Of a stretch of DNA of 58,541 nt, positions 1 to 34,799 are shown piece after piece. A program made the translations under genes and the position numbers. The stretch's first letter is position 1, and every line of letters begins with the position of its first letter. The notes under the pieces were generated by a model. The model made no database searches and was not told where the DNA came from. It saw only the letters and a program-made list of their open reading frames with translations. This DNA comes from Deltaproteobacteria bacterium (GTDB lineage Bacteria; Myxococcota_A; UBA9160; UBA6930), in NCBI GenBank assembly GCA_002687015.1, contig NYZB01000276.1, forward strand, positions 1 through 58,541, given 5' to 3'.

Positions 1-1093
1 GCTGCTCGGAGCCCAGCTCCTCCTGCACGCGGCGATGCTCCAGATCCGGACCCTGCTCGTCGACCCGGGCGTCGTGGAGCCCGAGAACCTGGGGAACCAG
101 CTCTTTCCGGCCGATGCCGTCGGAGAGCCCAAGGCGCAGGTGCGCGCCGCCCAGATGGCCGCGCTCAACCCCTCCTGCCCGGTGCGAGCGCTCCCCGAGC
201 GCATCGAGGACGTGGGCCTCGGCCAGCTGGCCGATAGCGACCTGCTCTTGACGGGGCTCGACAGCCGCGCGAGCCGACTCCGCGTTGCCGACATCGCCCA
301 GCAGCTCGGAGTGGATTGGATCGACGCCGCCGTCGACGGCAGCGGCGAGCGACAGCTGGGCGTGGTCACCTGGTTCCGGCCGAAGGAGGCCGACCTGGCC
401 TGCTATGGATGCCGCTACGACGGCGACGCCCTCGCCGAGATCGCGCGCGAGCAGCGGACGGCACCCTGCGCGAGCTGGCGCAACCGGGAGCTTCCGGACT
501 CACCTCCCACCCTCACCGCCTCGCCCTTCGGGGGGATCGTGTCGGGCTGGCAGATGAGCTTCGCCATCCGCGGGTTGCTGGGGGAGGGCGACGCCCTCGC
601 CGGCCACCAGCTGCAGATCGCCGGGGGGGCTCCGCCTCGCATGCGCTCGGTGAGGTTGGCCCGCAACCCGACGTGCCGCTTCTCCCACGCCTCACCGCCC
701 GCCGCGAGCCCCAGCCCGGACGGCGACACGGTCGGAGATCTGGTGTGCGCCGCGGAGAGGGAGCTCGGCGCTCCCCTCGATGGGGTGCGTTTCCCCGGCC
801 GGTCGCTGGTGCTGGGCCTGGTGTGTCCGGCCTGTGGCGGACGCCAGGAACGGGTGAAGCGCTGCGAGGCGGTCAGCGACGCGGAGCTGCGCTGCCCCCA
901 CTGCGGCTCCGCCGAATGCCTGCCCCTCGAGCTCGGAGACGGCCTGGATGCCGCCCGGCTGCAGACCCTCGCCTCGCACACGTGGCGATCCCTGGGAATC
1001 CCGGATCAGGACCTGGTCGTCGCCTCGAGTGCCGGGCGAGAGATCCGCTACCTGCTGCGGCCCGCGATCGAGGGTGGGGGGGCGCCATCATGA
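1..1093 (+). CDS. E1-like ubiquitin-activating / ThiF-MoeB family adenylyltransferase (5' partial, frame open to window edge, codon phase from nt 2)
   Basis: ThiF-type Rossmann/adenylation motifs (LLVDPGVVEPENLGNQ, KAQVRAAQMAALNP). CYGC plus a later C(RF) cysteine pattern as in ThiF/MoeB/E1 Zn sites. About 120-aa C-terminal extension with a CPACGG...CPHCGS zinc ribbon. High third-position GC. Stop overlaps the next start (ATGA at 1090-1093). Confidence 0.85.
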   Translation, partial: LLGAQLLLHAAMLQIRTLLVDPGVVEPENLGNQLFPADAVGEPKAQVRAAQMAALNPSCPVRALPERIEDVGLGQLADSDLLLTGLDSRASRLRVADIAQQLGVDWIDAAVDGSGERQLGVVTWFRPKEADLACYGCRYDGDALAEIAREQRTAPCASWRNRELPDSPPTLTASPFGGIVSGWQMSFAIRGLLGEGDALAGHQLQIAGGAPPRMRSVRLARNPTCRFSHASPPAASPSPDGDTVGDLVCAAERELGAPLDGVRFPGRSLVLGLVCPACGGRQERVKRCEAVSDAELRCPHCGSAECLPLELGDGLDAARLQTLASHTWRSLGIPDQDLVVASSAGREIRYLLRPAIEGGGAPS

Positions 1094-1626
1094 ACGACGT
1101 CATCCGGGCGTTCAGGGGCCGCACCATGGACCGGGATCTCCAGGCCGTGCGTGACCGCAGCGACAGCGTGCGACTCGCTCCGGATCCGCGCAGTGGCGAG
1201 CCCCCGGCCCGGCTCCACGGTGTCTTCCGGGATCTCGCCTACTTCGAGCCCGACGTCCAGCGAAGCTGCCGCGTCGTGCGCCGCCCCCTGCCCTTCTCGC
1301 TCACCTTTGCCGACGACTACTGCTGCTGCAGCGACGGCAGCCTGCAGATGCGCGTCGCCCAGCTACACGCACCCATCGTCCACCCGAACGTGGCGCCCGG
1401 CGGGCTCGTCTGCCTCGGCCCCCGCTTCCGGCCGGGCACCAAGCTGCCGGCCCTGCTCGAGCACCTGCACGCGATCGTCTCGGGGCGCGTCTACGCCAGC
1501 GAGTCTCCTCTCGACCCCGAGGCGGCGCGCCTCTTCCTGCGCGAGGGCGAGCGCGTCCGCGCCCTGCGCTCGGCGCCGCTGTGGCGCGACCCGGTGGCGC
1601 GAGCCGTACGAGTCGAAACCCGCTGA
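1090..1626 (+). CDS. E2-like ubiquitin-conjugating (UBC-fold) protein, 178 aa
   Basis: ATG 1090 overlaps the E1 stop. Sequence HPNVAPGGLVCLG matches the E2 HPN motif followed by a catalytic-Cys loop. Upstream PFSLTFADDY and downstream SPLDPEAARLF resemble canonical UBC core elements. Confidence 0.8.
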   Translation: MNDVIRAFRGRTMDRDLQAVRDRSDSVRLAPDPRSGEPPARLHGVFRDLAYFEPDVQRSCRVVRRPLPFSLTFADDYCCCSDGSLQMRVAQLHAPIVHPNVAPGGLVCLGPRFRPGTKLPALLEHLHAIVSGRVYASESPLDPEAARLFLREGERVRALRSAPLWRDPVARAVRVETR

Positions 1627-1648: not shown

Positions 1649-1915
1649 ATGACCGCCGCCACCCGCCCGACGCTGATCGACCTCACGCTGTCCGACTGGG
1701 AGGGCAGCCGCAAGGCGCACCTGGAGCAGGTGCCCGCCACCTCGACGGTGGGTCAGGTCGTGAACGAGGCCGTCTCCCACCTCGGCCTTCCGCCCCAGCA
1801 CCTCTACCAGGCGGTGCTGCGCGGCAGGGAGCTCGACCCGGGCGCCATCCTGGACGACCTCGGCATCGCCGCCGACACCGAGATCGACCTGGTTCCCGAG
1901 GTGAGCGCCGGTTGA
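1649..1915 (+). CDS. Ubiquitin-like beta-grasp protein, 88 aa, C-terminus ...PEVSAG
   Basis: ATG 1649 preceded by AAGGGAGA. Size and hydrophobic pattern (TLIDLTL...LRGRELDPGAILDDLGIAADTEIDLV) fit a beta-grasp Ubl. It ends in Gly immediately before the stop and sits between the E2 and JAB genes. Confidence 0.7.
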   Translation: MTAATRPTLIDLTLSDWEGSRKAHLEQVPATSTVGQVVNEAVSHLGLPPQHLYQAVLRGRELDPGAILDDLGIAADTEIDLVPEVSAG

Positions 1916-1977: not shown

Positions 1978-3048
1978 ATGAGCGAGCTCCCCTGGCGCTT
2001 CACTCTCGAAGTGCGACGCGAGAGCGGCGACCTCGCCGCCACGACCCAGGCGAGCGCGGCCCCCTGCATCGAGGCCGCGATCTTCCGGAGCGTGTGGATG
2101 GGCGAGCTGGCCAACGAGGGCGCCTGGCCGGACCTGCAGGTGACGCCGGAGTGGCTCGGCGATGGACGGCCCGTCATCACGGGGCTTGCGGTCGGCGTGG
2201 CCGGCGGCACCCCGCGGCACTTCGGTCTGGAGGCCTTCGCGAGCCAGGCCAGAGCCCTGATTCGCAGCCTCGATGCCGCGGGGCGCATCGGCGCCAAGGA
2301 GCGCGTCCGCTGGAACGTCGCCGCCGACCCGGCCGGGGACCCGGCCGGGCTTGGCAAGGTCCGCATCAGCCGTTCTCCCTTTCCGCTCGAGCCCGCCGAC
2401 CTGCCCGACGTGGCCCCGGGCAGCTTCGGGGTGGGCTTTGCGGCGGAGGTCCTGGCGGGCCTTCATGACCGGGTCCGGAGCACCGGCTCCGTCGAGGGCG
2501 CCGAGCTGCTGCTCGGACGGCTGCACCACGATTCCACCCGTCGCGCCGTACAGCTCTCGGTTGCAGAGGCCCTGCCGCTCACGCCGGGCCGAGGGGGCCA
2601 GTCGAACACGCATTTCGCCTTCGACCCGGGCAGCTTCGTCGCGGCCCGGAGCGCGGCGTTGGCCCGAAGGGACGGTCTGCGCCCGGTCGGCTGGCACCAC
2701 AACCACAACCCCTGCGACGCCTGCCTGGAAAGACCGGACTGCGACGCCAACTGGGTCTTCTTCTCCGAAGACGACCAGCAGGTGCAGGCGACCTTGTTCC
2801 CCTCGCCCTACATGGTCGCCCTGGTGGGCGGAAAGATCGCCGCGCTGCCTGCGAGCCGACCGGGCTTCCGCCTCTACGGGTGGAGCGGCGGGGTGATGGA
2901 GGAGCGCCACTTCGGCGTGACGGGTCCCGGAGCCGAGGCCTGGGACCGGGAGCTCGGCGCCTTCGCCGACGGGGCGCCAGGAAGACCCCCTGTGGGCGCG
3001 CCGAGCCCGGCCACCCCCGAGAAGGAGACGACGTGTCCGACGAACTGA
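1978..3048 (+). CDS. JAB/JAMM (MPN+) metalloisopeptidase with about 165-aa N-terminal domain of unknown function, 356 aa
   Basis: ATG 1978 with GGAGG 9 nt upstream (the track ORF starts at TTG 1912). JAMM elements: VEGAELLLGRL (Glu), WHHNHNP (HxH) and FFSEDD (SxxD). A Cys-rich insert (CDACLERPDCD) lies between HxH and SxxD. Confidence 0.8.
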   Translation: MSELPWRFTLEVRRESGDLAATTQASAAPCIEAAIFRSVWMGELANEGAWPDLQVTPEWLGDGRPVITGLAVGVAGGTPRHFGLEAFASQARALIRSLDAAGRIGAKERVRWNVAADPAGDPAGLGKVRISRSPFPLEPADLPDVAPGSFGVGFAAEVLAGLHDRVRSTGSVEGAELLLGRLHHDSTRRAVQLSVAEALPLTPGRGGQSNTHFAFDPGSFVAARSAALARRDGLRPVGWHHNHNPCDACLERPDCDANWVFFSEDDQQVQATLFPSPYMVALVGGKIAALPASRPGFRLYGWSGGVMEERHFGVTGPGAEAWDRELGAFADGAPGRPPVGAPSPATPEKETTCPTN

Positions 3049-4456
3049 TCCAGCTGCTCAAGGGAGAGGACCTCGAACCGGACGCCGAAATCGCGGCGAT
3101 CGCGAAGGCCTCGGGCGACCCGAAGGCCCTGCGCGTGGTCGCGCGACGCTTGATCGAGCGCCGTCGGGAGATCGGCGTGGAGCTCGCCAAGACCCGCGTC
3201 GCCCTGGAGAAGGCGAAGGCACAGGGCGCCAAAGCGAGGGAGGAGCTCGAAGCATTGCAGCAGCCGCCCCTGCACCCCGGCATCGTGCTGCGGGCCTGCG
3301 CGGACGGGCGCCTGGACGTGGCGACCCGCGGCGGAAGGCAGATCGTCGGGACCTTGCCCCAGCTCGCGGACGTCGAGCTCAAGGCCGGCGACGAGGTGTG
3401 GCTCGACCCGGGCAGCGGCCTGGTCGTCTCCCGGGGCCACGCGGGGCCGCGTCTCGGCCGCGTCCTCACCGTGGCCGAGGTGCTGGACGAGCGGGTGATC
3501 GTGCGCGGCGAGGCCGACGAGGAGCTGGCGCTCCTCTGCGATGCCGCCCTCACCAGGGGCCTGGCCACCGGCGACCGGGTGCTCGCCTCGAGCGAGGTGC
3601 CCTGTGTGCTCGAGCGGCTCCCGGGGGAGCGCCAGGGCGAGCACCTGCTGCAACATGCGCCGGCGACGCGCTTCTCGGACATCGGAGGCCTCGATGCGCT
3701 GATCGCCGAAGTGCGGCAGGAGCTGGAGCTCCACCTCTTCCACCCGGAGCTGGTGGAGAGCCACGGCCTGAGGCTGATGCGCGGCATGACCCTCGTGGGC
3801 GATCCCGGCGTCGGCAAGACGATGCTGGCTTGCGCCATCGCCGGGTTCCTCGCCGATCACGCGCCCGAGACCCGCTTCATGAACGTGAAGCCCGGCTCGC
3901 TGCGCGGCTCGTTCTACGGACAGACCGAGCAGCGCATCCAGGCCCTGTTCGACGCCGCGCGGGCCGCACCAGGCAAGGTCGTGATGTTCTTCGACGAGCT
4001 GGACCACTTCGGCGCCCGTGGCGCGAACCTCGGGCACGACATCGACGATCGGGTGATCGGCACCCTGCTGGCCGAGATCGACGGCCTGGAGGAGGCCGAC
4101 GGCATCTTCATCGTGGGCGCGACGAACCGCCTGGACCTGATCGACGACGCCCTGATCCGCGGCGGCCGGCTCGGCGACCGCATCGTCGAGATCCCGCGGC
4201 CCGGGCGCGGGGCGACACACGCCATCCTCGAGCGGCTCCTGGGGCCGAGCCTGCCCTGGGGCCGCGCCGGCGAGGACCCGGCGGGCGAGGCCGTCGCTTC
4301 GCCCTCGAGGTGCCGTGGAAGCCGGCGAACACGACCGTATCGGCCGAGTTGGAGCAGATGCTCGACGAGGTCGCGGGCCCCCTGCCGGAGCAGCCGACCG
4401 CCAACCACCTTGCGGGCCTCGTGCTGCGAAGCCGTGCGCGAAGGAGAGCCGGGTGA
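3033..4456 (+). CDS. AAA+ ATPase of proteasomal-ATPase (PAN/Mpa/Rpt-like) architecture, with an apparent -1 frameshift near 4270-4300
   Basis: GTG 3033 preceded by GAAGGAGA; it overlaps the JAB 3' end by 16 nt. N-terminal coiled coil (EIGVELAKTRVALEKAKAQGAKAREELEALQQPP), then two OB-like segments (GIVLRACADGRLDV..., GRVLTVAEVLDERVIVRG...). Walker A GDPGVGKT, Walker B VVMFFDELD, sensor-1 GATNR, Arg-finger region RGGRLGDR. After about nt 4290 the original frame becomes Arg/Ser-rich junk. The -1 frame keeps high GC3 (FALEVPWKPANTTVSAELEQMLDEV...) and ends at TGA 4454-4456, overlapping the next start. Confidence 0.75.
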
Positions 4457-4695
4457 GCTACCGACCCCCCATCCTGCTGAAGACCACTCCCCGGCTCGAG
4501 GTGGACGAGCGTCTCTACTACGAGGTCGCCTCGAACGGGATCTTCCAGGTCAAGGAGGCGCCGTGGTTCCGGGCCGTCACCCGGGTGACGCGTGAGGTGC
4601 CCGGGCTCTACCCCTCGCAAGAGAGGCTGGACCTGGACCTGCTCTCCGGACGCCAGGTGCCGGTCCGGCGGAACCTGAGGGCCGCGGCCCGGTGA
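4453..4695 (+). CDS. Hypothetical 80-aa protein translationally coupled to the AAA+ gene
   Basis: GTG 4453 in a GTGA overlap with the AAA+ stop, AAGGAGA 6 nt upstream, strong GC3 bias throughout. I recognise no motif (VSYRPPILLKTTPRLEVDERLYYEVASNGIFQVKEAPWF...). Confidence 0.5.
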   Translation: MSYRPPILLKTTPRLEVDERLYYEVASNGIFQVKEAPWFRAVTRVTREVPGLYPSQERLDLDLLSGRQVPVRRNLRAAAR

Positions 4696-6185: not shown

Positions 6186-7595
6186 CTAGAGTGGACCCTC
6201 CTGCTCCCCGGTGAGGACCAGGTCGAGGATCCGCTCCGGATCGGTCCATCCCCGCTCGTCCTGGACCTCCCGGCAAGCGCTCAGGATCTCGCCGAAGCGT
6301 TTCGAGGGCGACAGCCCGCGTGCGATCAGGTGGCGGCCGAGGACCACGTCCTTCGGACCCTCGGCGGGGATGGCCAGCTGGCGGGCCTTCTCGAGGAAGG
6401 CCTCCCCAGCCTCGAACTCGCCGCGAAGCGCCTCCTCGGTGGTGCGGCCCAGCTGGTCCGCCCGTGCGATGCGCTCGAGCAGCTCCATCGAGACGCCGCC
6501 CGCTGCGAGCTCACGGGCGAGCCTGCGATAGGCACGCGGCCCCGCGCCGTTCTGGACGAAGAGGGTCGGGGAGAGGTGGTGCAGGACCAGGAGGCCGACC
6601 GCACGGATGAGCTCGTTCGAGATGCGGAGCCTCTCGAGGAGGGCCGAGGTCGGGGGCAGGCCCGCACTCTCGTGGCCGCGAGAGCGGATGCGGCCCTCGA
6701 TCACCTCGGTCGTCGCCGGCTTCCCGAGATCGTGGCAGAGGGCCGCGAACATCAGGGCCGCATCCTCGCCGGGATCGCCCGTGCGCAGCTCTGCAGCGGA
6801 GTCGAGCACCATCAGGGTGTGGATCCAGACGTCGCCCTCGGGGTGCCACTCCGCGTCCTGCGGTACACCCCGAAGCTCGGCCAGCTCCGGGAAGAAGCGG
6901 ATCAGGTCGCTCTCGTCGAGGAATCGCAGGCCGAGCGAGGGCTTGCGCCCCTTCAGCAGCAGCTTGTTGAACTCCTCGCCGAGCCGCTCCCCGGGAAGCT
7001 CCGAGAGGTCGAGCTGCGAGCAGAGACGGGTGAGCTCGGCATCGGGCTCCATCTCGAAGCGCGCCGCGAACTGGGCCACCCGGAGACCGCGCAGCGGATC
7101 CTCGGAGAAGCTCTGCGGATCGGTGGCCCGCAGACGGCCGGCCTCCAGGTCCGCCACGCCTCCGTGGGGGTCGAGCAGCTCTCCGGTGACGAGATCGAAG
7201 CCGATGGCGTTGATCGTCAGGTCCCGGCGGCGCGCGGCCTCGCTGAAGTCGAGCTCCGGATCGACCTGGATCTCGAAGCCGCGATGCCCTGCGCCGGTCT
7301 TGCTATCGCGTCGGGGCAGCGAGAAGTCCACGTCGAGCCCGCGGATCATCAGCACCCCGAAGGACTGCCCCACCGTCATCACCTCGCCGAACTCGCCGAG
7401 AACCTCCGAGAGCTCCGGCAGCCTGAGGCCGAAGGTCTCGACGTCGAGGTCCTTCGACGGCTGGCCGAGCAAGGCGTCGCGCACGGCGCCTCCCACGAGG
7501 AGGGCCCGACCGCCGCGAGCCCGGATCGCCGCTCCGATCGCGTGGACCCGCCGGCCGACCGGGTCGTCGCGCAGATGCTCGCGCAGGGCTTCCAT
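6186..7595 (-). CDS. cca: CCA-adding tRNA nucleotidyltransferase with HD domain
   Basis: 469 aa. LVGGAVRDALLG...DLDV polymerase-beta nucleotidyltransferase head, RRDLTINA motif, HD domain CHDLGK...RGHE. Confidence 0.85.
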   Translation of the reverse strand: MEALREHLRDDPVGRRVHAIGAAIRARGGRALLVGGAVRDALLGQPSKDLDVETFGLRLPELSEVLGEFGEVMTVGQSFGVLMIRGLDVDFSLPRRDSKTGAGHRGFEIQVDPELDFSEAARRRDLTINAIGFDLVTGELLDPHGGVADLEAGRLRATDPQSFSEDPLRGLRVAQFAARFEMEPDAELTRLCSQLDLSELPGERLGEEFNKLLLKGRKPSLGLRFLDESDLIRFFPELAELRGVPQDAEWHPEGDVWIHTLMVLDSAAELRTGDPGEDAALMFAALCHDLGKPATTEVIEGRIRSRGHESAGLPPTSALLERLRISNELIRAVGLLVLHHLSPTLFVQNGAGPRAYRRLARELAAGGVSMELLERIARADQLGRTTEEALRGEFEAGEAFLEKARQLAIPAEGPKDVVLGRHLIARGLSPSKRFGEILSACREVQDERGWTDPERILDLVLTGEQEGPL

Positions 7596-9116: not shown

Positions 9117-9968
9117 TCAGCCGTCGCAAGCCGGCCCTTCCGCCCCGATCGCCCACGAGAGAGCGCCGCCGAGCAGGCTCTTCATCTCGGGTCGCTGATA
9201 GGCGGCGGCCAGGTGACCGAGGGCCGAGAAGAGGGTGCGGCCCCGGCCCAGGCATCGCGACCAGACCACGGGATGGTCGTCGCCCATGCGCAGGTCCTCG
9301 TCCATCCAGAGGAGGTGGAGCTCCGGGCTGTAGCTGCTCTCGTCCACGCGGACGAGCACGTCGAATCCCCTCTCACGGACGCTGCGGTCGAAGCTGTACC
9401 ACTCCTCGTGGTGGACGAAACGTTCGGGAAGATCGCGGGTCGCGGGATGCGTCCGGTCCTCGACCACGGCGGTCGCGTCCTGGAACTGCGGGCCCATGGT
9501 GTGCCCGATGAACTGCGCGCCGATCAGCTCCTCGACGTACCAGGCCCAATCGTAGGAAGGGTCCCCCCCGGCGCCGTGCAGGCCCACGAAGCCACCGCCC
9601 TGCTCCAGCCATTCCCTCAGGTGCTGCTTCTGGTCCGGGTTCAGGGTGTCGCCACTGGTATTGTGCCAGACCGTGACGGCGAAGCGGGACAGGATCTCGG
9701 GAGTGAAGGCCGCACCGTTCTCGGTATGGAAGAGCGACCAGCCCTTCTCCGCGGCGATCTCCTCGAGCAGGGCGAGCCCCGCCGGAATCGCCTCCTCGTG
9801 GCGAAAGCCATTGGTCTTGGTGAAGACGAGGAGGGCCGGAGCGCCGAGGTTCGCCGGCAGCTCGGGGGGCTCGGTCTCGTAGCTGTGGGAAGGGAAGAAG
9901 GTCCGCCAGGCACTGCAGCCGCCGGCGAGGAGACAGACGAGAGCCAGGAGCGGAATCGCGCGACGCAT
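9117..9968 (-). CDS. ThuA-domain (trehalose-utilisation-like) lipoprotein, paralog 1
   Basis: ATG 9968; lipobox LLAGGCS. VFTKTNGFRHEEAIPAG, WHNTSGDTL and HPVVW...ALGH are ThuA-like and closely parallel 11359..12204. The upstream part of track ORF 9117..11306 is antisense to the MFS gene. Confidence 0.8.
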   Translation of the reverse strand: MRRAIPLLALVCLLAGGCSAWRTFFPSHSYETEPPELPANLGAPALLVFTKTNGFRHEEAIPAGLALLEEIAAEKGWSLFHTENGAAFTPEILSRFAVTVWHNTSGDTLNPDQKQHLREWLEQGGGFVGLHGAGGDPSYDWAWYVEELIGAQFIGHTMGPQFQDATAVVEDRTHPATRDLPERFVHHEEWYSFDRSVRERGFDVLVRVDESSYSPELHLLWMDEDLRMGDDHPVVWSRCLGRGRTLFSALGHLAAAYQRPEMKSLLGGALSWAIGAEGPACDG

Positions 9969-10016: not shown

Positions 10017-11324
10017 ATGAATCAATCGCGCGCCGACTACCCGACCCGGAAGATCTTCGTCTTCAGCACGCTGACGCTGTTCACCGCGGGGCTCTCCTTC
10101 TCCCTGCGGGCGAGCATCATCGGAACACTGGAGGCGCAGTACCTCGCCAGCATCGATCCGGCCCATTCGGGCGAGATGGCGGGGCAGCTGCTGGGGATTG
10201 CATTCCTGGGCTTCGCTTCCACGCTCTTCCTCGCAAGCGTGTTCCTCGACGCCATCGGGCAGGGACGCAGCCTGCTCATCGCGGCGAGCGCCTTCGTGGT
10301 GGGCACCACCATGACCCTCGCCGCGCCGGCGCTCGCCGAAGGCCCGGGGGTCTACGACCTCCTGTGGCTCGGCTTCCTGCTCTCCGGCCTCGGCTGGGGC
10401 TTCATGGAGGCGGCGGTCAATCCCCTGGTCGCGGCGCTCTACCCGGAGGACAAGACCAATCGCCTGAACATCGTCCACGCATGGTGGCCGGCGGGGATCA
10501 TCGCCGGAGGGCTGATCGAGCTCGGGTTGGGCGCGCTGGGCATCGGCTGGCAGGCGCGCTTCGGGATGATCCTGCTCCCGGCCACGGTGGCCATCACCCT
10601 CTACTTCGGCACCCGTTTCCCGCGTACCGAGCGCGCGGCGGCTGGCGTTTCCATGGCGGACATGTTCCGCGAGATCCCGCGCAAGCCGATGTTCCTGGTC
10701 TGGTGGGTGTGCATGTTCCTCACGGCCTCCTCGGAGCTGGCGCCCGGACAGTGGATCGACCTGACACTCACCCGCACGGTCGGCATGCGCGGCATCTGGC
10801 TCCTGATCTACGTGAGTGGGATGATGTTCGTACTGCGCCACTTCGCAGGCCCGATCGCCCACCGCATCTCCAATGTGGGGATGCTCTGGGGCTCGGCGGT
10901 GCTGGCCTCGCTCGGTCTCCTGGCCCTCGCCCGCGTCGACTCGCCCACCATGGCGATCGGTGCCGCGACCGTCTGGGGCCTCGGCGTCTGCTTCATGTGG
11001 CCGACCATGCTGGCCAACGTGTCGGAGCGCTACCCCCGCGGCGGCGAGCTCTTCGTCGGCCTGATGGGCGTCGCCGGCGCTCTGGCGATCAACTTCGTTC
11101 TGCCGCAGCTCGGAGCCATCTTCGACCGGGCGAAGATCGAGGTCGCGGGTGGTCCCGAGGCCTTCGCCGCGCTCTCGGGCCAGCCCCTGCAGGAGGTGCT
11201 GCGCAGCGCCGCCGGCACCTCCTTCCAGACCCTGGCCATCCTCCCCGCGATCCTGATCGTCGTCTTCGCCGCACTCGCCCTCGTCGACCGGGCGCGCGGC
11301 TACCAACCCGAGCGCCTGAACTGA
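10017..11324 (+). CDS. MFS transporter (sugar/FucP-like)
   Basis: 435 aa, about 12 predicted TM helices, MFS-like loops (NPLVAALYPEDKTNR). Confidence 0.85.
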   Translation: MNQSRADYPTRKIFVFSTLTLFTAGLSFSLRASIIGTLEAQYLASIDPAHSGEMAGQLLGIAFLGFASTLFLASVFLDAIGQGRSLLIAASAFVVGTTMTLAAPALAEGPGVYDLLWLGFLLSGLGWGFMEAAVNPLVAALYPEDKTNRLNIVHAWWPAGIIAGGLIELGLGALGIGWQARFGMILLPATVAITLYFGTRFPRTERAAAGVSMADMFREIPRKPMFLVWWVCMFLTASSELAPGQWIDLTLTRTVGMRGIWLLIYVSGMMFVLRHFAGPIAHRISNVGMLWGSAVLASLGLLALARVDSPTMAIGAATVWGLGVCFMWPTMLANVSERYPRGGELFVGLMGVAGALAINFVLPQLGAIFDRAKIEVAGGPEAFAALSGQPLQEVLRSAAGTSFQTLAILPAILIVVFAALALVDRARGYQPERLN

Positions 11325-11358: not shown

Positions 11359-12204
11359 TCAGGGGCAGGCGGGACCTTCCTGACCGAGGGCCCAGGCGAT
11401 CGCGCCTTCGATCAGGTCCTTCAGGTGCTGCGTCTGGTAGGCGACGGCCTGGTGGCCGAGGGCCGAGTAGAAGGCGCGCCCCTTGCCCACACAGGTCGTC
11501 CACACGATCGGGTGGTCGTCGCCCATCGAGAGGTCTTCGTCGAGCCAGAGCCAGTCGATGCGCGGGGAGTAGGTCGACTCGTCGACGGTGGCGAGCACGC
11601 GGAAGCCCTTGGCCCGCGGGCTCTCGGTGAAGGAGTACCACTCCTCGGTGTGCAAGAAGGTCTCGGGCCACTTCGCCGTGCCCGGGTGGTCGCGATCCTC
11701 GACGTGGACGCGGGCCTCCTGGAACTGCGGGCCCATCGGGTGCTGGCCGTAGTCCACGCCGATCAGGTTCTTGCGGTACCAGTCCCAGGTATGGGAGCCG
11801 TCACCGGCCGCATGGGTGCCGACCCAGCCGTGGCCCTCCTCGAGCCAGCCCTGGAAGGCGGCCTTCTGCCCCTCGGTGAGGACGTCGCCGCTGGTCACGT
11901 GCCAGACGACGGCGTCGAAGCGGGCCAGCAGCTCGGGCTCGAAGCTCGCTCCGTTCTCGGTGTGGAAGACCGACCAGCCGCGGCGAGCGGCAATCTCCTC
12001 GATCAAGGCGACCCCGGCGGGGATCGCCTCCTCGTGGCGGAAGGCGTTGGTCTTCGTGAACACCATCACGGCCGGCGAGCCCAGATCGGCCGGCAGGGTC
12101 GGCGGCTCGGTGTCGTAGTCCTTCTTCGGGACGAAGGCGCGGTAGACGCTGCAGCTGGTGAGGAGTAGAGAGGCGAGAAGCCCGAGGGCGATCGTACGGC
12201 TCAT
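11359..12204 (-). CDS. ThuA-domain lipoprotein, paralog 2
   Basis: ATG 12204, 7 nt after the SDR stop. Lipobox LLLTSCS. Collinear similarity to 9117..9968 (VFTKTNAFRHEEAIPAG, HPIVW...ALGH). Confidence 0.8.
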   Translation of the reverse strand: MSRTIALGLLASLLLTSCSVYRAFVPKKDYDTEPPTLPADLGSPAVMVFTKTNAFRHEEAIPAGVALIEEIAARRGWSVFHTENGASFEPELLARFDAVVWHVTSGDVLTEGQKAAFQGWLEEGHGWVGTHAAGDGSHTWDWYRKNLIGVDYGQHPMGPQFQEARVHVEDRDHPGTAKWPETFLHTEEWYSFTESPRAKGFRVLATVDESTYSPRIDWLWLDEDLSMGDDHPIVWTTCVGKGRAFYSALGHQAVAYQTQHLKDLIEGAIAWALGQEGPACP

Positions 12205-28025: not shown

Positions 28026-29423
28026 TTGTCTGGTCGCATCTATGATTCTCCCCGCTTTTTCTATGCCTTGGCGGCGCTCCTGCTGATTGCTGGTGCCCTG
28101 AGCCAGCTCCGGATCTCGATTCCGACCCGGCCCATCGGCAGTGTGGACGAGATCGCTGCGCTGAAGGATCGGGAGGACCTCAACGTCATCTTCGTCTTGA
28201 TCGACACCCTGCGCGCCGATCGGCTCGGATCCTACGGCTACGAGCGCGACACCACTCCCTTGATCGATGAGCTCGGCCGGAGCGGCATCCGCTTCGCCGA
28301 GACCCATGCCCAGTCCAGCTGGACGAAGACCTCGATGGCCTCGCTCTGGACGGGCCTCTTCCCGCCGCGGACGGGCGTCCTCCGCTACGACGACGCCGTC
28401 CCGCCGAAGGCGACGATGCCGGCGGAGATCTTCAGGGAGGCGGGCTACGCCACGGCCGGGATCTTCCGGAACGGCTGGGTGGGCGCCAACTTCGGCTTCA
28501 ACCAGGGCTTCGAGACCTACGTGAAGCCCCAGAAGCGGGAGGTCAAGGAGGGCTTCGAGAAGCACGTCCCCGGCGCCGCCACCGTGCCGGGCACGGATTC
28601 GGAAGTGACCCTGGCCGCCCTCGAGTTCGTGCGGAACAACGCGCACCAGAAGTTCCTTCTCTACCTGCACTACATGGACGCGCACCAGTACGCCTACGAG
28701 GCGGAGTTCGCCCAGCTCGACTACGGATCGACGATCTCGGACAGCTACGACCGGGCGATACGCTGGACCGACGCCAACATCGATCAGCTGGTCGCCGAGC
28801 TCGAAGACCTGGACCTGATGAAGAAGACGATCCTCGTGATCGCCTCCGACCACGGTGAGGCCTTCCGGGAGCACGGCATCGAGGGGCACGCCCAGGACCT
28901 GCACATCGAGGCGCTCCGGGTCCCGCTGATCATCAACCTGCCCTTCCGGATCGATGGAGGGCTGACCGTGGAGCCAGTGACCCGCAACGTCGACATCTGG
29001 CCCACGATCCTCGACATGGTCGGACTGCCGCCTCTTCCGAGCACCGACGGCATCTCCCTGATCCCGATGATCCAGGCCGCAGCCGAAGGCTCCAGCACGG
29101 AGGAGCTCGAGTCCTTCGCATTCCTCGACCTGGGCTGGGGGCAGCGCAACTCGGACTTCCAGCCCTTGGCCGCGCTGCAGCACGAGGGGCGAAAGGTCAT
29201 GGTCGAGCTGGCGGAGCCCGAAGAGACCTTGATGGCCTTCGACGTGGATGCCGATCCGGGTGAGCGGAAGAACCTCAAGGGCGGCAGGCCCGACTGGATC
29301 GAGCCTCTGCAGGCGAAGATGGCAGAGCACTCGGAGGCCGAAACGGCCATCGGCAGCCTCCAGATCGAGCTCGACGAGATGTACCGGGCCCAGCTCGAGG
29401 CTCTTGGCTACGTCGTGAAGTAG
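28026..29423 (+). CDS. Sulfatase-like alkaline-phosphatase-superfamily enzyme (Thr at the nucleophile position), membrane anchored
   Basis: TTG 28026 with GGAGA 5 nt upstream. N-terminal TM FFYALAALLLIAGAL. VLIDTLRADRLGSYGY metal-site motif, SDHGE, and HAQSSWTKTSMASLWTG in place of the C/S-x-P-x-R sulfatase signature. Start uncertain. Confidence 0.75.
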   Translation: MSGRIYDSPRFFYALAALLLIAGALSQLRISIPTRPIGSVDEIAALKDREDLNVIFVLIDTLRADRLGSYGYERDTTPLIDELGRSGIRFAETHAQSSWTKTSMASLWTGLFPPRTGVLRYDDAVPPKATMPAEIFREAGYATAGIFRNGWVGANFGFNQGFETYVKPQKREVKEGFEKHVPGAATVPGTDSEVTLAALEFVRNNAHQKFLLYLHYMDAHQYAYEAEFAQLDYGSTISDSYDRAIRWTDANIDQLVAELEDLDLMKKTILVIASDHGEAFREHGIEGHAQDLHIEALRVPLIINLPFRIDGGLTVEPVTRNVDIWPTILDMVGLPPLPSTDGISLIPMIQAAAEGSSTEELESFAFLDLGWGQRNSDFQPLAALQHEGRKVMVELAEPEETLMAFDVDADPGERKNLKGGRPDWIEPLQAKMAEHSEAETAIGSLQIELDEMYRAQLEALGYVVK

Positions 29424-29424
29424 G

Positions 29425-31977
29425 GTGGCAAGCCGCCCGGTGTCTGCCCTTCCCTTCTTCGTCCTGGCCTTCTTGTCGGGAACGGCGGCCCTCACCTACG
29501 AAGTCGTCTGGGCGAAGACCTTTGCGCTCACCTTCGGCAGCTCCACCCTCGCGGCCAGCGCTTCGGTGGCGGGCTTCATGGGCGGGATGGGCCTCGGGGC
29601 CCATCTCTACCCCCGCCTGGTCGAAGAGCGGGTCCACCCCCTGCGCGCCTACGCGGCCCTCGAGTTCGGCATCGCGGCCACCGCGGCGCTCTTCTCCGCC
29701 GGCTTCCAGTGGCTTCCGGGCTTGTTCGCCGCCGCGGCAGACTGGCTTCCGGGCGGAGTCTCCCTCGATGTCTTCCGGGTCCTCTCGGCGATGTCGCTGC
29801 TGATCGTTCCCGCGAGCCTGATGGGCGCGACCTTTCCGGCCCTCTGTCTCGTCATGCTCCGGACGCGCAGCGACGTCGACCAGCACCTCGGCTGGATCTA
29901 TGGATGGAACACCCTGGGCGCGGCCGCGGGGGCACTGGCGGCCGGCTTCGTCTTCATCGAGGTCCTGGGCCTGCGGGGCAGCGTGGCCCTGGCCTGTGCG
30001 ATCAACCTGCTGGTGGGCCTGGCAGCGCTCCTCCTGTTCCGCATCCGCGAAGAGGGCCGCAGGCCGGCTCCGGACTCGACGGAAGGGATCCCGACCCGGC
30101 TCCCCGCCGGCACCACGGGCCTCGTCCTCTTCGCGGCGGGCTTCGCCACCCTCGCCTACGAGATCCTCTGGTTCCGTGCGCTCCGCTACCTGGTGGGCAA
30201 CAGCACCTACGCCCTGAGCCTCATCTTCGTGATCTTCCTCCTCGGACTGGGCGTCGGAGGGTTGATCTACCGACCACTGCTGCGACGGGTCTCGGCCGAA
30301 GCGCTGCTCGGCGTCTCGCAGCTCGGGATCGCGGTCCTCGCACTCGGCGCGATCTTCGCCGAGATCTTCATCCTGGGTGACTACGCTCTCTCCGAGCAGC
30401 TCTCGGTGTTCTCGCCGCTCGTGCAGGCCCAGCCCTGGTGGAAGCGGCTCCTGCTCTCCTCGGAGATCGCCCTCTGCATCATGCTGCCGGCCACCCTCCT
30501 GATGGGGCTGGCCTTCCCGCTCGCGAGCCGGCTCTTCCTGGGCAGCCTCGAGCGGCTGGGTCGGCGAGTCGGCTTCGCCACCCTGCTCTCGAACCTGGGC
30601 AGCATCGTCGGCTCGATCGGAGCGGCCGTCGTGATCCTGCCGCTCCTCGGCACGGTCACCGGAACGACCGCCGTGGCCTTCGTGAATCTCGGGCTCGGCA
30701 TCCTGATCCTCCGCCACAGCCAGTCGCCGCCGTGGTGGAAGCGAGCCGCGGCCGCTGCGGCCCTCGTGCTCTGCGCGGGCGCCCTGTTCCTGCCCACGCG
30801 GATGCCCTTCCGCGGCGAGCGGGCTGCGGAGCGGGTCGCCACCGAGCTCGTCTTCGAGCAGGAAGACGATCTCGGGACGGTCCAGGTCCGCGCCGCCAGG
30901 AGGAACCCGGAGAACAGGGTCATGCTGATCGATGGGTCGATGATTGCGGCCAGCCGGGGCTTCCTCGAGCCCTTCGACCGCAAGCAGACCCTGCTCGCCC
31001 ACCTGCCCCTGGCGATCGACGGCTCGCTGCGCCGGACCCTGAACGTCGGACTCGCTTCCGGCTCGACCCTGGAAGCGATCGCGGGCCACCCCGAGCTCGT
31101 GACCCTCGACACCGTCGAGATCAACCCCGCGGTCGCGAAGGGCGCGGCCTTCTTCTCCGAGTCGCAGGCCCTCGGCGATCCGCGGGCCCGCCTGTTCGTC
31201 GAGGACGCGGTGCACCACCTCCTGCGCTCCCCCGAGGGCTACGACCTGGTCATCAGCGACGGAAAGCAGAACAAGGACTACTCGGGCAACTCGAAGGTCC
31301 TCTCCTGGGAGTTCTTCGACTACGCCCGCCGCAGCCTCTCCGGCTGTGGGCTCTTCGTGCACTGGATTCCGGGCAACCTCGACGGCGAGAGCTTCGAGAT
31401 CGTGGTCCGCACCCTCCTCGACGTCTTCCCGGAGGTCGAGATCTTCGTCGACGGCGCGGAATCCGTCCTGATGGTCGGCTCGGACTGCCCGATCGGCGGC
31501 CGGCGCGGCATGTCACAGAGCTCCTTCGTCGCCAGCGGCGGTGCGGAGCAGCTCGGTGAGTTCGGCCTCGGGCAGGTCGAGACCCTGAAGGCCCTCTGGG
31601 TCGCTGGACGACCCGGGCTCGAGGCCATCCTCGAGCCCGGTCCGCTGAACGACTGGAACCACATGCCCCTCGAGTACAGGAACTACCGGGCGCCGGGTGG
31701 CAAGCAGAAGGACGCCCGGCGAAACCTCGAGTGGCTCGTGGAAGCGGGCGGGGCCGGCCCCACGCCCCAGTGGGTTCGCCGCCTCGGCCCCGACGTCGAG
31801 ATCGCCCGCATCGTGCGCGAGGCCCTGCTCCTGCGGATGGCCGGAGAGGACTCGAGGGCACGGGGCCTGCTTCGGGAAGCCGTGGCCGACCACCCCGACA
31901 GCCTGCTCTTGCGCCGCGAGAATGCCAAGAAGAAGTCCATCGGAGCCAAGAAGAAGCTCCTCCGAGATCCGTCGTGA
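29425..31977 (+). CDS. Fused polytopic-membrane (MFS-like) / spermidine-synthase-like protein, paralog 1
   Basis: GTG 29425, 1 nt after the upstream stop. N-terminal about 450 aa of TM helices beginning FFVLAFLSGTAALTYEVVW. C-terminal class I methyltransferase/spermidine-synthase-like fold (NVGLASGSTLEAI...DLVISDG). Confidence 0.75.
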   Translation: MASRPVSALPFFVLAFLSGTAALTYEVVWAKTFALTFGSSTLAASASVAGFMGGMGLGAHLYPRLVEERVHPLRAYAALEFGIAATAALFSAGFQWLPGLFAAAADWLPGGVSLDVFRVLSAMSLLIVPASLMGATFPALCLVMLRTRSDVDQHLGWIYGWNTLGAAAGALAAGFVFIEVLGLRGSVALACAINLLVGLAALLLFRIREEGRRPAPDSTEGIPTRLPAGTTGLVLFAAGFATLAYEILWFRALRYLVGNSTYALSLIFVIFLLGLGVGGLIYRPLLRRVSAEALLGVSQLGIAVLALGAIFAEIFILGDYALSEQLSVFSPLVQAQPWWKRLLLSSEIALCIMLPATLLMGLAFPLASRLFLGSLERLGRRVGFATLLSNLGSIVGSIGAAVVILPLLGTVTGTTAVAFVNLGLGILILRHSQSPPWWKRAAAAAALVLCAGALFLPTRMPFRGERAAERVATELVFEQEDDLGTVQVRAARRNPENRVMLIDGSMIAASRGFLEPFDRKQTLLAHLPLAIDGSLRRTLNVGLASGSTLEAIAGHPELVTLDTVEINPAVAKGAAFFSESQALGDPRARLFVEDAVHHLLRSPEGYDLVISDGKQNKDYSGNSKVLSWEFFDYARRSLSGCGLFVHWIPGNLDGESFEIVVRTLLDVFPEVEIFVDGAESVLMVGSDCPIGGRRGMSQSSFVASGGAEQLGEFGLGQVETLKALWVAGRPGLEAILEPGPLNDWNHMPLEYRNYRAPGGKQKDARRNLEWLVEAGGAGPTPQWVRRLGPDVEIARIVREALLLRMAGEDSRARGLLREAVADHPDSLLLRRENAKKKSIGAKKKLLRDPS

Positions 31978-34799
31978 TTCGCGGCATCGCACTCCTCCTG
32001 ACCTTCTTCACGGGCTCGAGCGGCCTCGTCTACGAGGTCGCCTGGCAGAAGGTGCTGGCCGCGCTGCTCGGCTCGCACAGCGAAGCGACGGCGGCCGTCC
32101 TGGCGATCTACCTGGGCGGACTCGCTGCGGGCTACGCGCTCTTCGGCCGGGTCACGGCGCGCTCGGGGCGCCTCTCGCTCTTGCGCCTCTACGGAATCGT
32201 CGAGTTCGGCATCGGTGTCTGGGCCCTCCTCTTCCCGTGGTTCTTCACGGCGGCGCAGGGGCTCTCGGTGGCCATGGCGCCTGCCAACGAAGCCCTGGGC
32301 TTCGGGTTCGACGTCCTCCTCGCGACCTTCCTGATCGGCCCGCCCACGGTGTTGATGGGCGGCACCATCCCCGTCCTGACCCAGGCGCTCGCCCGGGACA
32401 CGAGCGACGCGACCCGGGTCCACGCCTGGATCTACTCCACCAACACGGCGGGGGCCTTCCTCGGCGCGCTGGCGGGTGGGTTCTTCCTGGTGCCGTGGCT
32501 GGGTCTGGACGGAGTGGTCCGGACGATGGCCATCGTGAACCTGGGCGCTGGGGTCGTCTTCGTCCTGTCCGGCGGCGCCGGCCGTGCGGCCGCCCCCGCG
32601 GCGGAAACGCCGGGGAGCCGGCAGCCGGAGAGCTTCGCCGGCTACGCCGTGGTCGCGGTTCTGGCCGGGTTCTCGATGATGACGGTGCAGACGGTGCTCA
32701 ACCGGATCGGCGCGCTCTCGCTCGGCGCCTCCCACTTCACCTTCTCCATGGTCGTGGCGGTCTTCGTCCTCTGCATTGCGCTCGGTAGCTTCGCGGTCTC
32801 TGCACTCCGGACGATCCCGGCATGGCTCATCGTCGGCCTGCAGTGGCTGTTGGCGGCCATCATGGTGGGCCTCTACTTCGTCCTGCCGGATACGACCTAT
32901 TGGGCCCATGTCATCCGCAGCCTCTTCCGCGACGAAGCGGCGGCCTTCTTCCCCTACTACGGCGCGGTCTTCACGGCGATGCTCGCCGTGCTCTTCGTCC
33001 CCATCGGGATCTCCGGCGCCCTGCTGCCCCTTCTCTTCCACCACCTGCGCGATCGGATGGGCGAGCTCGGCAGCGTCGCCGGCAAGCTCTACAGCTGGAA
33101 CACCGTGGGCTCCTTGCTGGGCGCGCTGCTCGGTGGCTACGCGCTGCTCTTCTTCATCGACCTCGACCAGGTCTACGCGCTCGCCGTGGGCGGGCTGTTC
33201 TTCGTGGCGCTCGGCGTCACGATCCTGGTGGGACGCATGCCGCTCGCTCTGGGAGCGATCGGCGCCGTCGTGGTCCTCTTCCTCGGCACCCAGCTTCCGG
33301 AGTGGGACTCGAATCGTCTGGCCGCCGGGACCTTCCGCCAACGCCACCCCACCCCGAATTCCTACAGCGGGCCCAAGGCCTTCTACCGACAGGGTCGACT
33401 CAACCACGTGTTCCACACCGACGACCCGATCGCCTCGGTCACGGTCGTCCGGAACACCCAGAAGGGCAAGCCCAACCACGCCATCATGACGAACGGCAAG
33501 GCCGACGGCAGCCTTGGCCCCGACTACCCGACCATGGCGATCACGGGCCTGCTCCCGGCTCTCTTTACGGACGACCCGTCCCGCTCCTTCGTGATCGGCT
33601 GGGGCACGGGAGTGACGATCGGCGAGCTCGCCGCCCTCGAAGGCACCCGTGAGGTCCTCGTCGCCGAGATCTCGCCGGGCGTCCTCGAGGCTGCACCGCT
33701 CTTCGACTACGGAAACCTGGCGGCCTCGAAGAACCCGAAGGTCGAGATCCTTCGAAGTGATGCGTACCGCGCGCTGCTCCGGAGCGAAGGCCAGTTCGGA
33801 GTCATTGCCTCGGAGCCGAGCAACCCCTGGGTCGCGGGGGTGGAGATGCTCTTCAGCCGGGACTTCCTCGAAGCGGCGCGCTCCCGGCTGACGCCGGGCG
33901 GCATCTACGCCCAGTGGTTCCACCTCTACGAGACGGATCGCGAGACGGTCGAGATGGTGCTCCGCACCTACGCCGAGGTCTTCGATTCCGTCTCGATCTG
34001 GTACACCTTCGGCCCCGATCTGATCCTGCTCGGGCACAACGCGCCGGATGACTCGCTCGACCTCGAGCGCCTTCGGAAGGGGTTCGAGCAACGCGACTTC
34101 CGCGCGGGCTTCGCGCGGGCCCGCATCGGGAGCTTTCCGACCTTCCTCTCCCACGAGCTCATACCGCTGGGCACGCCGGAGGCCGCAGGGCTGAAGGGGC
34201 CGATCCACACGTTGCGGCACCCGCGGCTGAGCCACCTGGCCGCGAGTGCCTTCTTCCACAGCAGGCGGGCAGAGGTCCCGAGCTTGCCGCAGCTCCCGAG
34301 CGCTCGGGTCGGTGCCCGGAACTCGCTCCTCCGCAGGGCCGGGCCCCTGGACGAGGCGACGCTCGGCGAGATCGTCCGCCACACCTGCGAGATGCAGCGA
34401 CTCCGGGAGTGCGCCACGTGGCTCGCGCGAATGATCGCCTCGTTCCCCGACAGCGAGCAGACCGCAGAGCTGAGGCGGAGGCGAGAGGCCCGTCTCACCG
34501 AGTTCCTGAAGCTCGAGCCGGGAGCCCTCGACTCCCTCGCGGGCTTCTACGAGGGGAAGGTCCCGAGCCTGAGCGGGAGCGGATTTTCGGATGCGCTCCA
34601 GGCCACGAAGCTCTTCGAGCGCTTCTACCTGCACGCTGCGCCCTTCCCGCGGCGGGTGCTGTCGGGCGCGTGGCGCAACTGCCGCGAGGTGGGCGTCTCG
34701 CTCCGCTGCTACGAAGCGCGCCGCAAGGCCGGCGAGCGACTCGGCGACCTGACGGCCCAGGTCGATCTCGGATCGACCCCTGGAGCACCGCTGCGGTAG
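31974..34799 (+). CDS. Fused polytopic-membrane (MFS-like) / spermidine-synthase-like protein, paralog 2
   Basis: GTG 31974 in a GTGA overlap with the upstream stop. LLLTFFTGSSGLVYEVAW opening parallel to paralog 1. VIGWGTGVTIGEL...GVIASEPSNPW spermidine-synthase-like core. Extra C-terminal helical domain. Confidence 0.75.
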   Translation: MIRGIALLLTFFTGSSGLVYEVAWQKVLAALLGSHSEATAAVLAIYLGGLAAGYALFGRVTARSGRLSLLRLYGIVEFGIGVWALLFPWFFTAAQGLSVAMAPANEALGFGFDVLLATFLIGPPTVLMGGTIPVLTQALARDTSDATRVHAWIYSTNTAGAFLGALAGGFFLVPWLGLDGVVRTMAIVNLGAGVVFVLSGGAGRAAAPAAETPGSRQPESFAGYAVVAVLAGFSMMTVQTVLNRIGALSLGASHFTFSMVVAVFVLCIALGSFAVSALRTIPAWLIVGLQWLLAAIMVGLYFVLPDTTYWAHVIRSLFRDEAAAFFPYYGAVFTAMLAVLFVPIGISGALLPLLFHHLRDRMGELGSVAGKLYSWNTVGSLLGALLGGYALLFFIDLDQVYALAVGGLFFVALGVTILVGRMPLALGAIGAVVVLFLGTQLPEWDSNRLAAGTFRQRHPTPNSYSGPKAFYRQGRLNHVFHTDDPIASVTVVRNTQKGKPNHAIMTNGKADGSLGPDYPTMAITGLLPALFTDDPSRSFVIGWGTGVTIGELAALEGTREVLVAEISPGVLEAAPLFDYGNLAASKNPKVEILRSDAYRALLRSEGQFGVIASEPSNPWVAGVEMLFSRDFLEAARSRLTPGGIYAQWFHLYETDRETVEMVLRTYAEVFDSVSIWYTFGPDLILLGHNAPDDSLDLERLRKGFEQRDFRAGFARARIGSFPTFLSHELIPLGTPEAAGLKGPIHTLRHPRLSHLAASAFFHSRRAEVPSLPQLPSARVGARNSLLRRAGPLDEATLGEIVRHTCEMQRLRECATWLARMIASFPDSEQTAELRRRREARLTEFLKLEPGALDSLAGFYEGKVPSLSGSGFSDALQATKLFERFYLHAAPFPRRVLSGAWRNCREVGVSLRCYEARRKAGERLGDLTAQVDLGSTPGAPLR

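Follow-up and report, generated by a model that had tools for sequence, protein, structure and literature searches.

Introduction

The bacterial proteasomal ATPases Mpa and ARC (PDB 5KWA, 7PX9; TIGR03689) combine a coiled coil and QPP hinge with tandem OB domains and a classic AAA module that carries an aromatic pore loop and two arginine fingers; in Mpa, the coiled coils bind the tag and the pore loop threads the substrate (PMC8755798). A second group of described systems comprises the E1-E2-(RING)-Ubl-JAB operons, which are built around a ubiquitin-like protein (Ubl) and include those of Caldiarchaeum and the Bil, Bub and type II cyclic-oligonucleotide-based antiphage signaling (CBASS) systems (PMC1779556; PMC3082918; PMC11601596). 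Here we analyzed a 58,541-nucleotide (nt) stretch of DNA (contig NYZB01000276.1 of assembly GCA_002687015.1, from a bacterium classified as deltaproteobacterial; hereafter "the window") in which a gene for an Mpa/ARC-like AAA+ unfoldase lies in an E1-E2-Ubl-JAB-type operon. In this marine lineage the operon has decayed, and the gene retains the first ~420 of ~541 codons; we consider it probable, at roughly 0.8, that it is an inactive remnant of a tag-linked unfoldase.

The locus and its intact relatives differ from each of the described systems. Whereas Mpa heads a Dop-Pup-PrcBA-PafA locus and ends in GQYL, the family gene follows E1-E2-Ubl-JAB, and its intact members have an LRAA or LRVA tail. 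In proteasome-less actinobacteria such as Corynebacterium glutamicum, ARC is an Mpa-type unfoldase proposed to act alone, with a protein tag but without prcBA (PMC8223512, citing Kuberl 2016); it uses Pup alone, whereas the operons considered here always add a putative beta-grasp Ubl, an E1, an E2, a RING-like protein and a JAB peptidase. The Rpt ring with its partner Rpn11 and the archaeal PAN share the coiled coil-OB-AAA layout and the pairing of a JAB/MPN+ protein with an ATPase, which takes the form of overlapping genes here, but they have one OB domain and an HbYX tail where this family has two OB domains and no HbYX, and a contact between JAB and AAA proteins is in our case something we infer. 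The E1-E2-(RING)-Ubl-JAB operons, finally, share a ThiF-type E1, an E2 with an HPN..Cys motif, a JAMM peptidase, a small putative Ubl with a C-terminal glycine and an upstream cysteine-rich RING-like protein, with the difference that the Ubl ends in AG here and not in GG. Term searches of Iyer 2006 (PMC1779556) and of two preprints from the Corbett laboratory, which deal with Bub operons and with Ubls of bacteria, returned no mention of an AAA+ partner.

The window encodes the first part of an Mpa/ARC-like ATPase

A preliminary description of this DNA had claimed a coiled coil, a proline hinge, two OB-like segments and the motifs of a classic AAA module, and all of these are present in frame 0 (Table 1), as borne out by Pfam, PDB searches and AlphaFold2. 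Pfam matched Prot_ATP_ID_OB_C over two stretches (E=1.3e-13) and AAA (E=3.7e-27), with Prot_ATP_ID_OB_N falling under its cut-off (E=0.0026). An AlphaFold2 model of residues 1-417, built from a 71-sequence alignment, reached a mean predicted local distance difference test score (pLDDT) of 89.6 and contains a 46-residue helix (residues 30-75), two five-stranded beta domains (residues 81-134 and 143-196), the AAA alpha/beta domain and a single lid helix. In 68 of the 71 relatives the helix preceding the hinge is 20, 27 or 34 residues long, stepping by whole heptads as expected for a coiled coil, and the window helix and hinge align with the Mpa coiled coil and the Mpa 'GQPP' hinge. Residues G256, G259, G261, K262, D321, N365, R376 and R379 are invariant across the 71 relatives. 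The coiled coil, two-OB and classic AAA layout is thus real and far beyond chance.

Sequence and fold both point to Mpa/ARC. When the model was compared with the PDB by Foldseek, the best 30 matches were all Mycobacterium tuberculosis Mpa chains (E 3e-32 to 7e-23), and the Rpt subunits of the 26S proteasome ranked next. By sequence, the N-domain matched only Mpa/ARC entries (3m9b, 2.8e-7; ARC 2wfw, 1.9e-4) apart from one marginal unrelated entry (E=0.087), and the only significant PDB matches of the lid segment of intact relatives were to Mpa residues 493-551 (1.2e-3). The intact relative on contig L003 scored highest against the NCBIfam model pup_AAA (TIGR03689; 254.1 bits, under the equivalog cut-off of 504.75), ahead of PAN (165), CDC48 (131) and FtsH (112); the PAN models gave 125-165 bits against cut-offs of 500-750. 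A neighbor-joining tree of the AAA module united the non-GQYL sequences with the window (198/200) and recovered both the GQYL group and the close family (200/200 each); since PAN, Rpt and FtsH were not part of this tree, the position of the family with respect to them rests on the hidden Markov model scores and the fold ranking. These results support the earlier identification of the protein as a proteasomal-type AAA+ ATPase, with Mpa/ARC as its closest relative, and the intact relatives form a clade apart from GQYL-tailed Mpa.

The gene does not, however, end where it had been said to end. The preliminary description placed its stop at 4456 and, reading a C-terminus of ...RSRARRRAG without a docking motif, argued for a stand-alone enzyme. 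The interval 3033-4456 is 1424 nt long, which is not a multiple of three, and it joins frames 0 and 2; position 4456 is the stop of a stump from another operon gene, which encodes a 268-residue protein in related loci, and ...RSRARRRAG is the C-terminus of that protein (its residues 215-268; E 1e-17), fitting the C-terminal consensus of a 38-sequence alignment (A2). The docking-motif argument does not hold, since the C-terminus on which it relied combines two reading frames. The frame-0 open reading frame (ORF) that starts at 3033 in fact extends to 4595, but homology to intact relatives is solid only up to 4259 (...LPW; residue ~409) and weak from there to ~4298. The closest homologues are 59-68% identical to the window protein and 534-545 residues long, exceeding its homologous part by ~120 residues, and the last ~120 residues of six intact homologues had no tblastn match in any frame of the window.

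What follows the break is a mosaic of stumps. In the related operons the ATPase gene is followed by genes for a second Ubl (Ubl2), the 268-residue protein, a second JAB (JAB2) and a second E1 (ThiF2); in the window, the end of the 268-residue gene in frame 2 is followed by the beginning of JAB2 in frame 1, which is fused in frame to the last codons of ThiF2 (tblastn E=1.5e-5 to L001 residues 217-239 and 1e-4 to L003 residues 216-235, 61-65% identity). Third-position GC content shows the coding frame passing from 0 to 2 at ~4280 and from 2 to 1 at ~4456, so that the stumps retain the codon signature of their former frames, and the GTGA start/stop overlap between the 268-residue and JAB2 stumps is kept (4450-4456). 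The frame-1 ending ...RRNLRAAAR was considered as a shifted version of the ...LRAA tail of the family and rejected, as tblastn identified it as the ThiF2 C-terminus; the original end of the operon survives in the window.

This mosaic implies two internal deletions. In the first, the AAA gene breaks off behind its first lid helix and is continued, in another frame, by the final 54 codons of the 268-residue gene; in the second, JAB2 breaks off at codon ~60 and the final ~23 codons of ThiF2 follow. Lost in this way were the C-terminal domain of the ATPase and most of its lid, Ubl2, and the larger part of the 268-residue gene, of JAB2 and of ThiF2. Because the first deletion joined different frames, frame 0 reads through ~99 nonsense codons to 4595, and the 520-residue and 571-residue "AAA ATPase" calls on this contig can be corrected to a truncated gene plus a nonsense tail.

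The window gene was found on ten contigs. Six independently assembled contigs, which came from independent metagenomes (TARA, ERR868455, ERR868468, two Logan runs and others), were 100% identical in DNA sequence wherever they overlapped the region, three of them over 5.2-6 kb, and the deletion is therefore real. The remaining cluster members differ solely in their called start or in partial length; since there is no sequence variation among contigs or cluster members, the remnant offers no signal of polymorphism or of the ratio of non-synonymous to synonymous substitution (dN/dS).

Table 1. Coordinates of the ATPase gene, its motifs, the downstream stumps and the neighboring operon genes (window positions unless a contig is named).
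Feature	Position	Strand	Remarks
Mpa/ARC-like AAA+ gene, genuine part	3033..4298	+	residues 1 to ~422 of ~541; frame 0; GTG start 3033
AAA N-terminal helices	3039-3110	+	
AAA coiled-coil helix	3120-3257	+	
Heptad-like sequence REIGVELAKTRVALEKAKAQGAKAREELEALQQ	3165-3263	+	frame 0
Proline hinge PPLHPG	3264-3281	+	QPPLHPG with preceding Q
OB1	3273-3434	+	
OB2	3459-3620	+	
AAA large subdomain	3645-4202	+	
Walker A GDPGVGKT	3798-3821	+	
Aromatic pore loop SFYGQ	3909-3923	+	
Walker B FFDELD	3987-4004	+	
Sensor 1 GATNR	4116-4130	+	
Arginine fingers RGGRLGD	4158-4178	+	
First lid helix	4206-4238	+	
Stump of 268-residue operon protein, its residues 215-268	4292..4456	+	frame 2; tblastn E=1.4e-17, 60% identity to L003
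Out-of-frame read-through tail of frame-0 ORF	4299..4595	+	~99 codons, R/P/S-rich; unlike any AAA C-terminus
JAB2 stump, residues 1-61	4453..4635	+	frame 1; tblastn E=5e-29 (L003), 2e-29 (L001); 67-69% identity
ThiF2 (second E1) C-terminal stump, last ~23 residues	4621..4695	+	in-frame fusion to JAB2 stump
E1-like adenylating enzyme, ThiF family	2..1093	+	5' end cut by window edge; Pfam ThiF E=7.9e-21
E2-like (UBC) protein	1090..1626	+	HPN...Cys motif VHPNVAPGGLVCLG; Pfam UQ_con weak, E=0.015
Ubl, ending ...EVSAG-stop	1649..1915	+	74-76% identical to Ubl of L003 and L001
Ubl of related loci	L001 8713-9000; L038 8714-8995; L039 8598-8900		
JAB/MPN+ metallopeptidase-like protein	1978..3048	+	stop overlaps AAA start by 16 nt
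Sister-clade pupylation module	L038 11686-15054; L039 11905-14963; L041 11692-15039		two large genes flank a 65-69-residue protein, 3' of the Mpa-like gene

Operons of the intact relatives

Non-GQYL ATPases directly follow E1-E2-(X)-Ubl-JAB in all eight contexts, the window included. The 11-gene operon runs in the order RING-like (~178 residues, cysteine-rich), E1 (ThiF), E2, YbjN-like, Ubl, JAB, AAA, ThiS-like Ubl2, 268-residue protein, JAB2 and ThiF2. A YbjN-like gene (231-290 residues) separates E2 from Ubl in seven of the eight contexts, the interval in L039 being a single 282-residue gene; it is absent from the window, where the gap between E2 and Ubl is ~20 nt (1626-1649). In several operons the end of the JAB gene and the start of the AAA gene share 16-17 nt.

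Two arrangements occur downstream of the ATPase. The first is Ubl2, a protein of 268-275 residues, JAB2 and ThiF2, and the second, in a sister clade, consists of two Pup-ligase genes around a 65-69-residue protein with a Pup-like ...GGQ end (...RQRGGQ in L038, ...RQQGGQ in L039). Both large genes match Pfam Pup_ligase in L038 and L041, and only the second one does in L039. Each of these sister loci thus unites ubiquitin-type E1/E2/RING/JAB and pupylation modules. Their Pup(GGQ) and two Pup-ligase genes occur in the absence of proteasome genes, a situation for which the ARC system of Corynebacterium is a precedent: no proteasome subunit genes lie between the pupylation genes, and compared with a GQYL control locus (Mpa-Dop-Pup-PrcB-PrcA-...-PafA) the sister operons resemble Mpa-Dop-Pup-PafA loci from which exactly prcBA is missing. 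The window itself contains no Pup, Dop/PafA or PrcB/PrcA.

The C-termini of the intact proteins are conserved within groups. Members of the close family end in ...[RQK]LRAA, ...HRYLRAA or ...LRVA, those of the wider group in ...HRVLRVA, ...YRYLSVA or similar, and the distant true Mpa-type proteins in GQYL; the LRAA-type tail of the close family is neither GQYL nor HbYX.

Bins that carry an Mpa-type unfoldase in an E1/E2/RING-like/JAB operon belong to Myxococcota/"Deltaproteobacteria", Binatia and Gemmatimonadales. A scan of genome contigs returned only one close relative, on a Myxococcota metagenome-assembled genome (L014), so that the taxonomic distribution is poorly sampled. In two bins that are not related to each other, a gene for a sigma-54-dependent activator directly precedes the RING-E1 operon (L038 3867-5549 and L041 3918-5576), which hints at regulated expression of the operon.

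The 268-residue protein belongs to a well-conserved family of 209 matches, all annotated as "hypothetical", with the motifs LLLPNLYNVAxGYGQRCWLCL and HEGNSYW. Neither Pfam nor NCBIfam gave a match for it, and an AlphaFold2 model (pLDDT 79) had no significant fold match in the PDB (best E 0.08). As a candidate for the missing protease it was therefore rejected, having neither a family nor a significant fold match that would make it a recognizable protease. Its LPN...C loop resembles the HPN..Cys loop of E2, and one might guess at an E2-like protein on that basis, but hhalign against the operon E2 gave a probability of only 1.9%.

Proposed function of the intact family

From its homology to Mpa, the most likely role of the intact ATPase is tag-directed unfolding. 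The coiled coils and OB ring of the intact hexamer would capture proteins tagged by one of the modifiers of the operon (Ubl-AG, Ubl2 or, in the sister operons, Pup), and the aromatic pore loop ([YF]YG) would thread the substrate through the pore. The translationally coupled JAB may strip or process the Ubl in a manner analogous to Rpn11 on the Rpt ring: the 16-17 nt overlap of the JAB and AAA genes suggests a deubiquitinase-ATPase pair like Rpn11 and Rpt. The conserved LRAA-type tail, in turn, would dock to a partner that is not encoded as a recognizable protease in the operon.

Tentatively, and with somewhat less than even confidence, we propose that the family supplies the unfoldase of a bacterial tagging pathway not yet described, in which an LRAA-tailed Mpa-like clade with no 20S in its loci is wired to a eukaryote-like (FHA?)/RING-E1-E2-Ubl(AG)-JAB set plus either Pup/Dop/PafA or Ubl2/268-residue protein/JAB2/ThiF2, with JAB and the AAA ring working as Rpn11 and Rpt do. 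If true, this would be a bacterial link among beta-grasp ubiquitin-type tagging, pupylation and an ATP-dependent unfoldase. Full-text literature searches returned no Mpa-like AAA protein linked to E1/E2/RING/JAB operons, although an earlier description is possible; if functional and undescribed, the family would offer a tractable bacterial system both for the coupling of an ATPase ring to Ubl tags and a JAB deubiquitinase and for asking what Mpa-like unfoldases do without a 20S core.

The proposal that the enzyme is a stand-alone, Ubl-directed unfoldase can be retained in part. A link to Ubl is reasonable for the family, given the E1-E2-Ubl-JAB context and the overlap with JAB, but the window copy is not an intact enzyme, and the conserved extreme C-terminus of the intact relatives suggests docking to a partner rather than a purely stand-alone protein. 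That same conservation (...[RQK]LRAA, ...HRYLRAA, ...HRVLRVA) gives substance to the alternative that the intact ATPase feeds an unlinked compartmental protease, such as 20S, HslV, ClpP or another, through its tail. C-terminal tails are docking elements in Mpa and Rpt (PMC8223512, PMC8755798), and the lid segment that the intact relatives share with Mpa residues 493-551, and with Mpa only, corresponds to a stretch that includes the beta-grasp hairpin (D504/K505) touching the 20S gate (PMC8755798). We nevertheless regard this alternative as somewhat unlikely. None of the eight contexts has a Pfam Proteasome-family gene in the 10-kb flanks that the search covered, whereas PrcB/PrcA come right after Pup in the GQYL control; the tail lacks a penultimate aromatic residue; and what the sister operons are short of, relative to a Mpa-Dop-Pup-PafA locus, is precisely prcBA. 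For the window, the absence of a partner protease reported at the outset was upheld: the operon contains no protease gene, whether for 20S, ClpP or another, and the 20 other large ORFs of the window show no protease domain.

State of the window copy

Judged from its sequence, the window ATPase appears to lack most of the lid, the region matching the Mpa beta-grasp hairpin and the conserved tail, ~120 C-terminal residues in all. With only one of four expected lid helices left and the C-terminal domain missing, its product is most likely inactive, and the gene a recently inactivated remnant. The degree of conservation fits a recent event: identity to L003 and L001 is 60-69% for the dead stumps, 51-66% for E1, E2, JAB and AAA, and 74-76% for the Ubl. 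Since the dead stumps equal the AAA part in conservation, the conservation of the latter indicates recent deletion rather than function.

Several observations weigh against this interpretation. The retained 417 residues deviate at none of the 53 columns that are conserved in at least 90% of relatives; some residual function of the window copy is conceivable, if unlikely; and the mechanism ascribed to the intact relatives is based on Mpa homology and gene order only. Compared with the close family, the window protein differs in a single way, by P257D in Walker A: it reads GDPGVGKT where its 23 close relatives read GPPGVGKT, and no further strongly conserved column has a change specific to the window.

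An alternative is that the gene still yields a truncated product, with the N-domain ring and the large AAA subdomain followed by a junk tail, whose role is diminished or new; it might, for instance, serve the surviving E1-E2-Ubl-JAB core as a Ubl-binding ring. Mpa N-domain fragments hexamerize by themselves, the start codon and the JAB overlap are both intact, and conserved positions show no excess of substitutions. In addition, the E1-E2-Ubl-JAB core may still be working, since E2 (HPN..C) and JAB (E, HxH, S..D) keep their catalytic residues. We consider such a role improbable all the same: apart from the loss of three lid helices and the entire C-terminal domain, the tail keeps the codon signature of its old frames and so has not been adapted as coding sequence, stumps that can have no function are conserved to the same extent, and P257D is a lineage-specific change in Walker A.

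It is hardly credible that the change of frame instead reflects a mistake in sequencing or assembly, or a programmed -1 frameshift, with a full-length or fused protein being made. Indel errors do occur in high-GC metagenome assemblies, and the frame-2 segment starts directly where frame-0 homology stops, but ~1.3 kb of expected sequence is gone (the AAA C-terminus, Ubl2 and 214 codons of the 268-residue gene), which is not a shift by one nucleotide; the DNA is the same in six independently assembled contigs; and the junction (near 4260-4300) has no homopolymer run or in-phase slippery X_XXY_YYZ heptamer. Just as hard to credit is an intact stand-alone unfoldase of ~474 residues encoded by 3033-4456 and ending in ...RSRARRRAG: although its N-domain and AAA motifs are real and its operon has no protease gene, the interval lies in two frames, the last 54 residues come from another protein family, and all intact relatives run to ~541 residues and possess the C-terminal domain and the greater part of the lid, which this copy has lost.

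Upstream operon genes

The window E1 is 59% identical to the E1 of the intact L003 operon, and the full 395-residue gene is present on contig L007. In E2, residues H98, P99, N100 and C108 are invariant among six aligned operon homologues. Pfam returned no match for the window Ubl; for its 74%-identical L003 homologue it gave two matches under cut-off, ubiquitin (E=0.0017) and Rad60-SLD (E=6.8e-5). The Ubl end is a conserved -AG, not -GG. Some homologues have extra residues after the AG (SAGCEVVAR in L001, and DAGRGFRK and DAGSETNESR), and these extended Ubls look like precursors that would require processing, presumably by the adjoining JAB. The window JAB likewise has no Pfam match, while its homologues show faint or weak Prok-JAB matches; the JAMM residues E173, H241, H243, S263 and D266 are invariant in eight homologues, and a cysteine-containing insert lies between HxH and S..D.

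PADLOC gave weak E1-E2 (Cap2) matches for the window E1 (best 3e-6), matches of the AAA protein to the generic IetA and TRIP13, and none for E2, Ubl or JAB; the version used (v2.0, 2023) is perhaps older than the Bil and Bub models.

Just upstream of what corresponds to the left edge of the window, contig L007 carries a Cys/His-rich RING-like gene (6521-6865), so that an operon-head gene of this kind exists in the lineage. The match is confined to its residues 60-174 and is preceded, ~20 codons upstream, by an in-frame stop, so that the gene is perhaps damaged at its 5' end too. The N-terminal half of the intact RING-like homologues appeared FHA-like when judged by eye.

Other features of the window

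A search of the whole window (1-58541) against Rfam returned no family at gathering score. On the minus strand, two ThuA-like paralogues flank a gene for a major facilitator superfamily transporter (9117-9968, 10017-11324 and 11359-12204). Elsewhere in the window lie two adjacent, very large ORFs (29419-31977 and 31560-34799; 852 and 1079 residues, stop to stop), each with a spermidine-synthase-like domain, whose frames overlap by ~400 nt.

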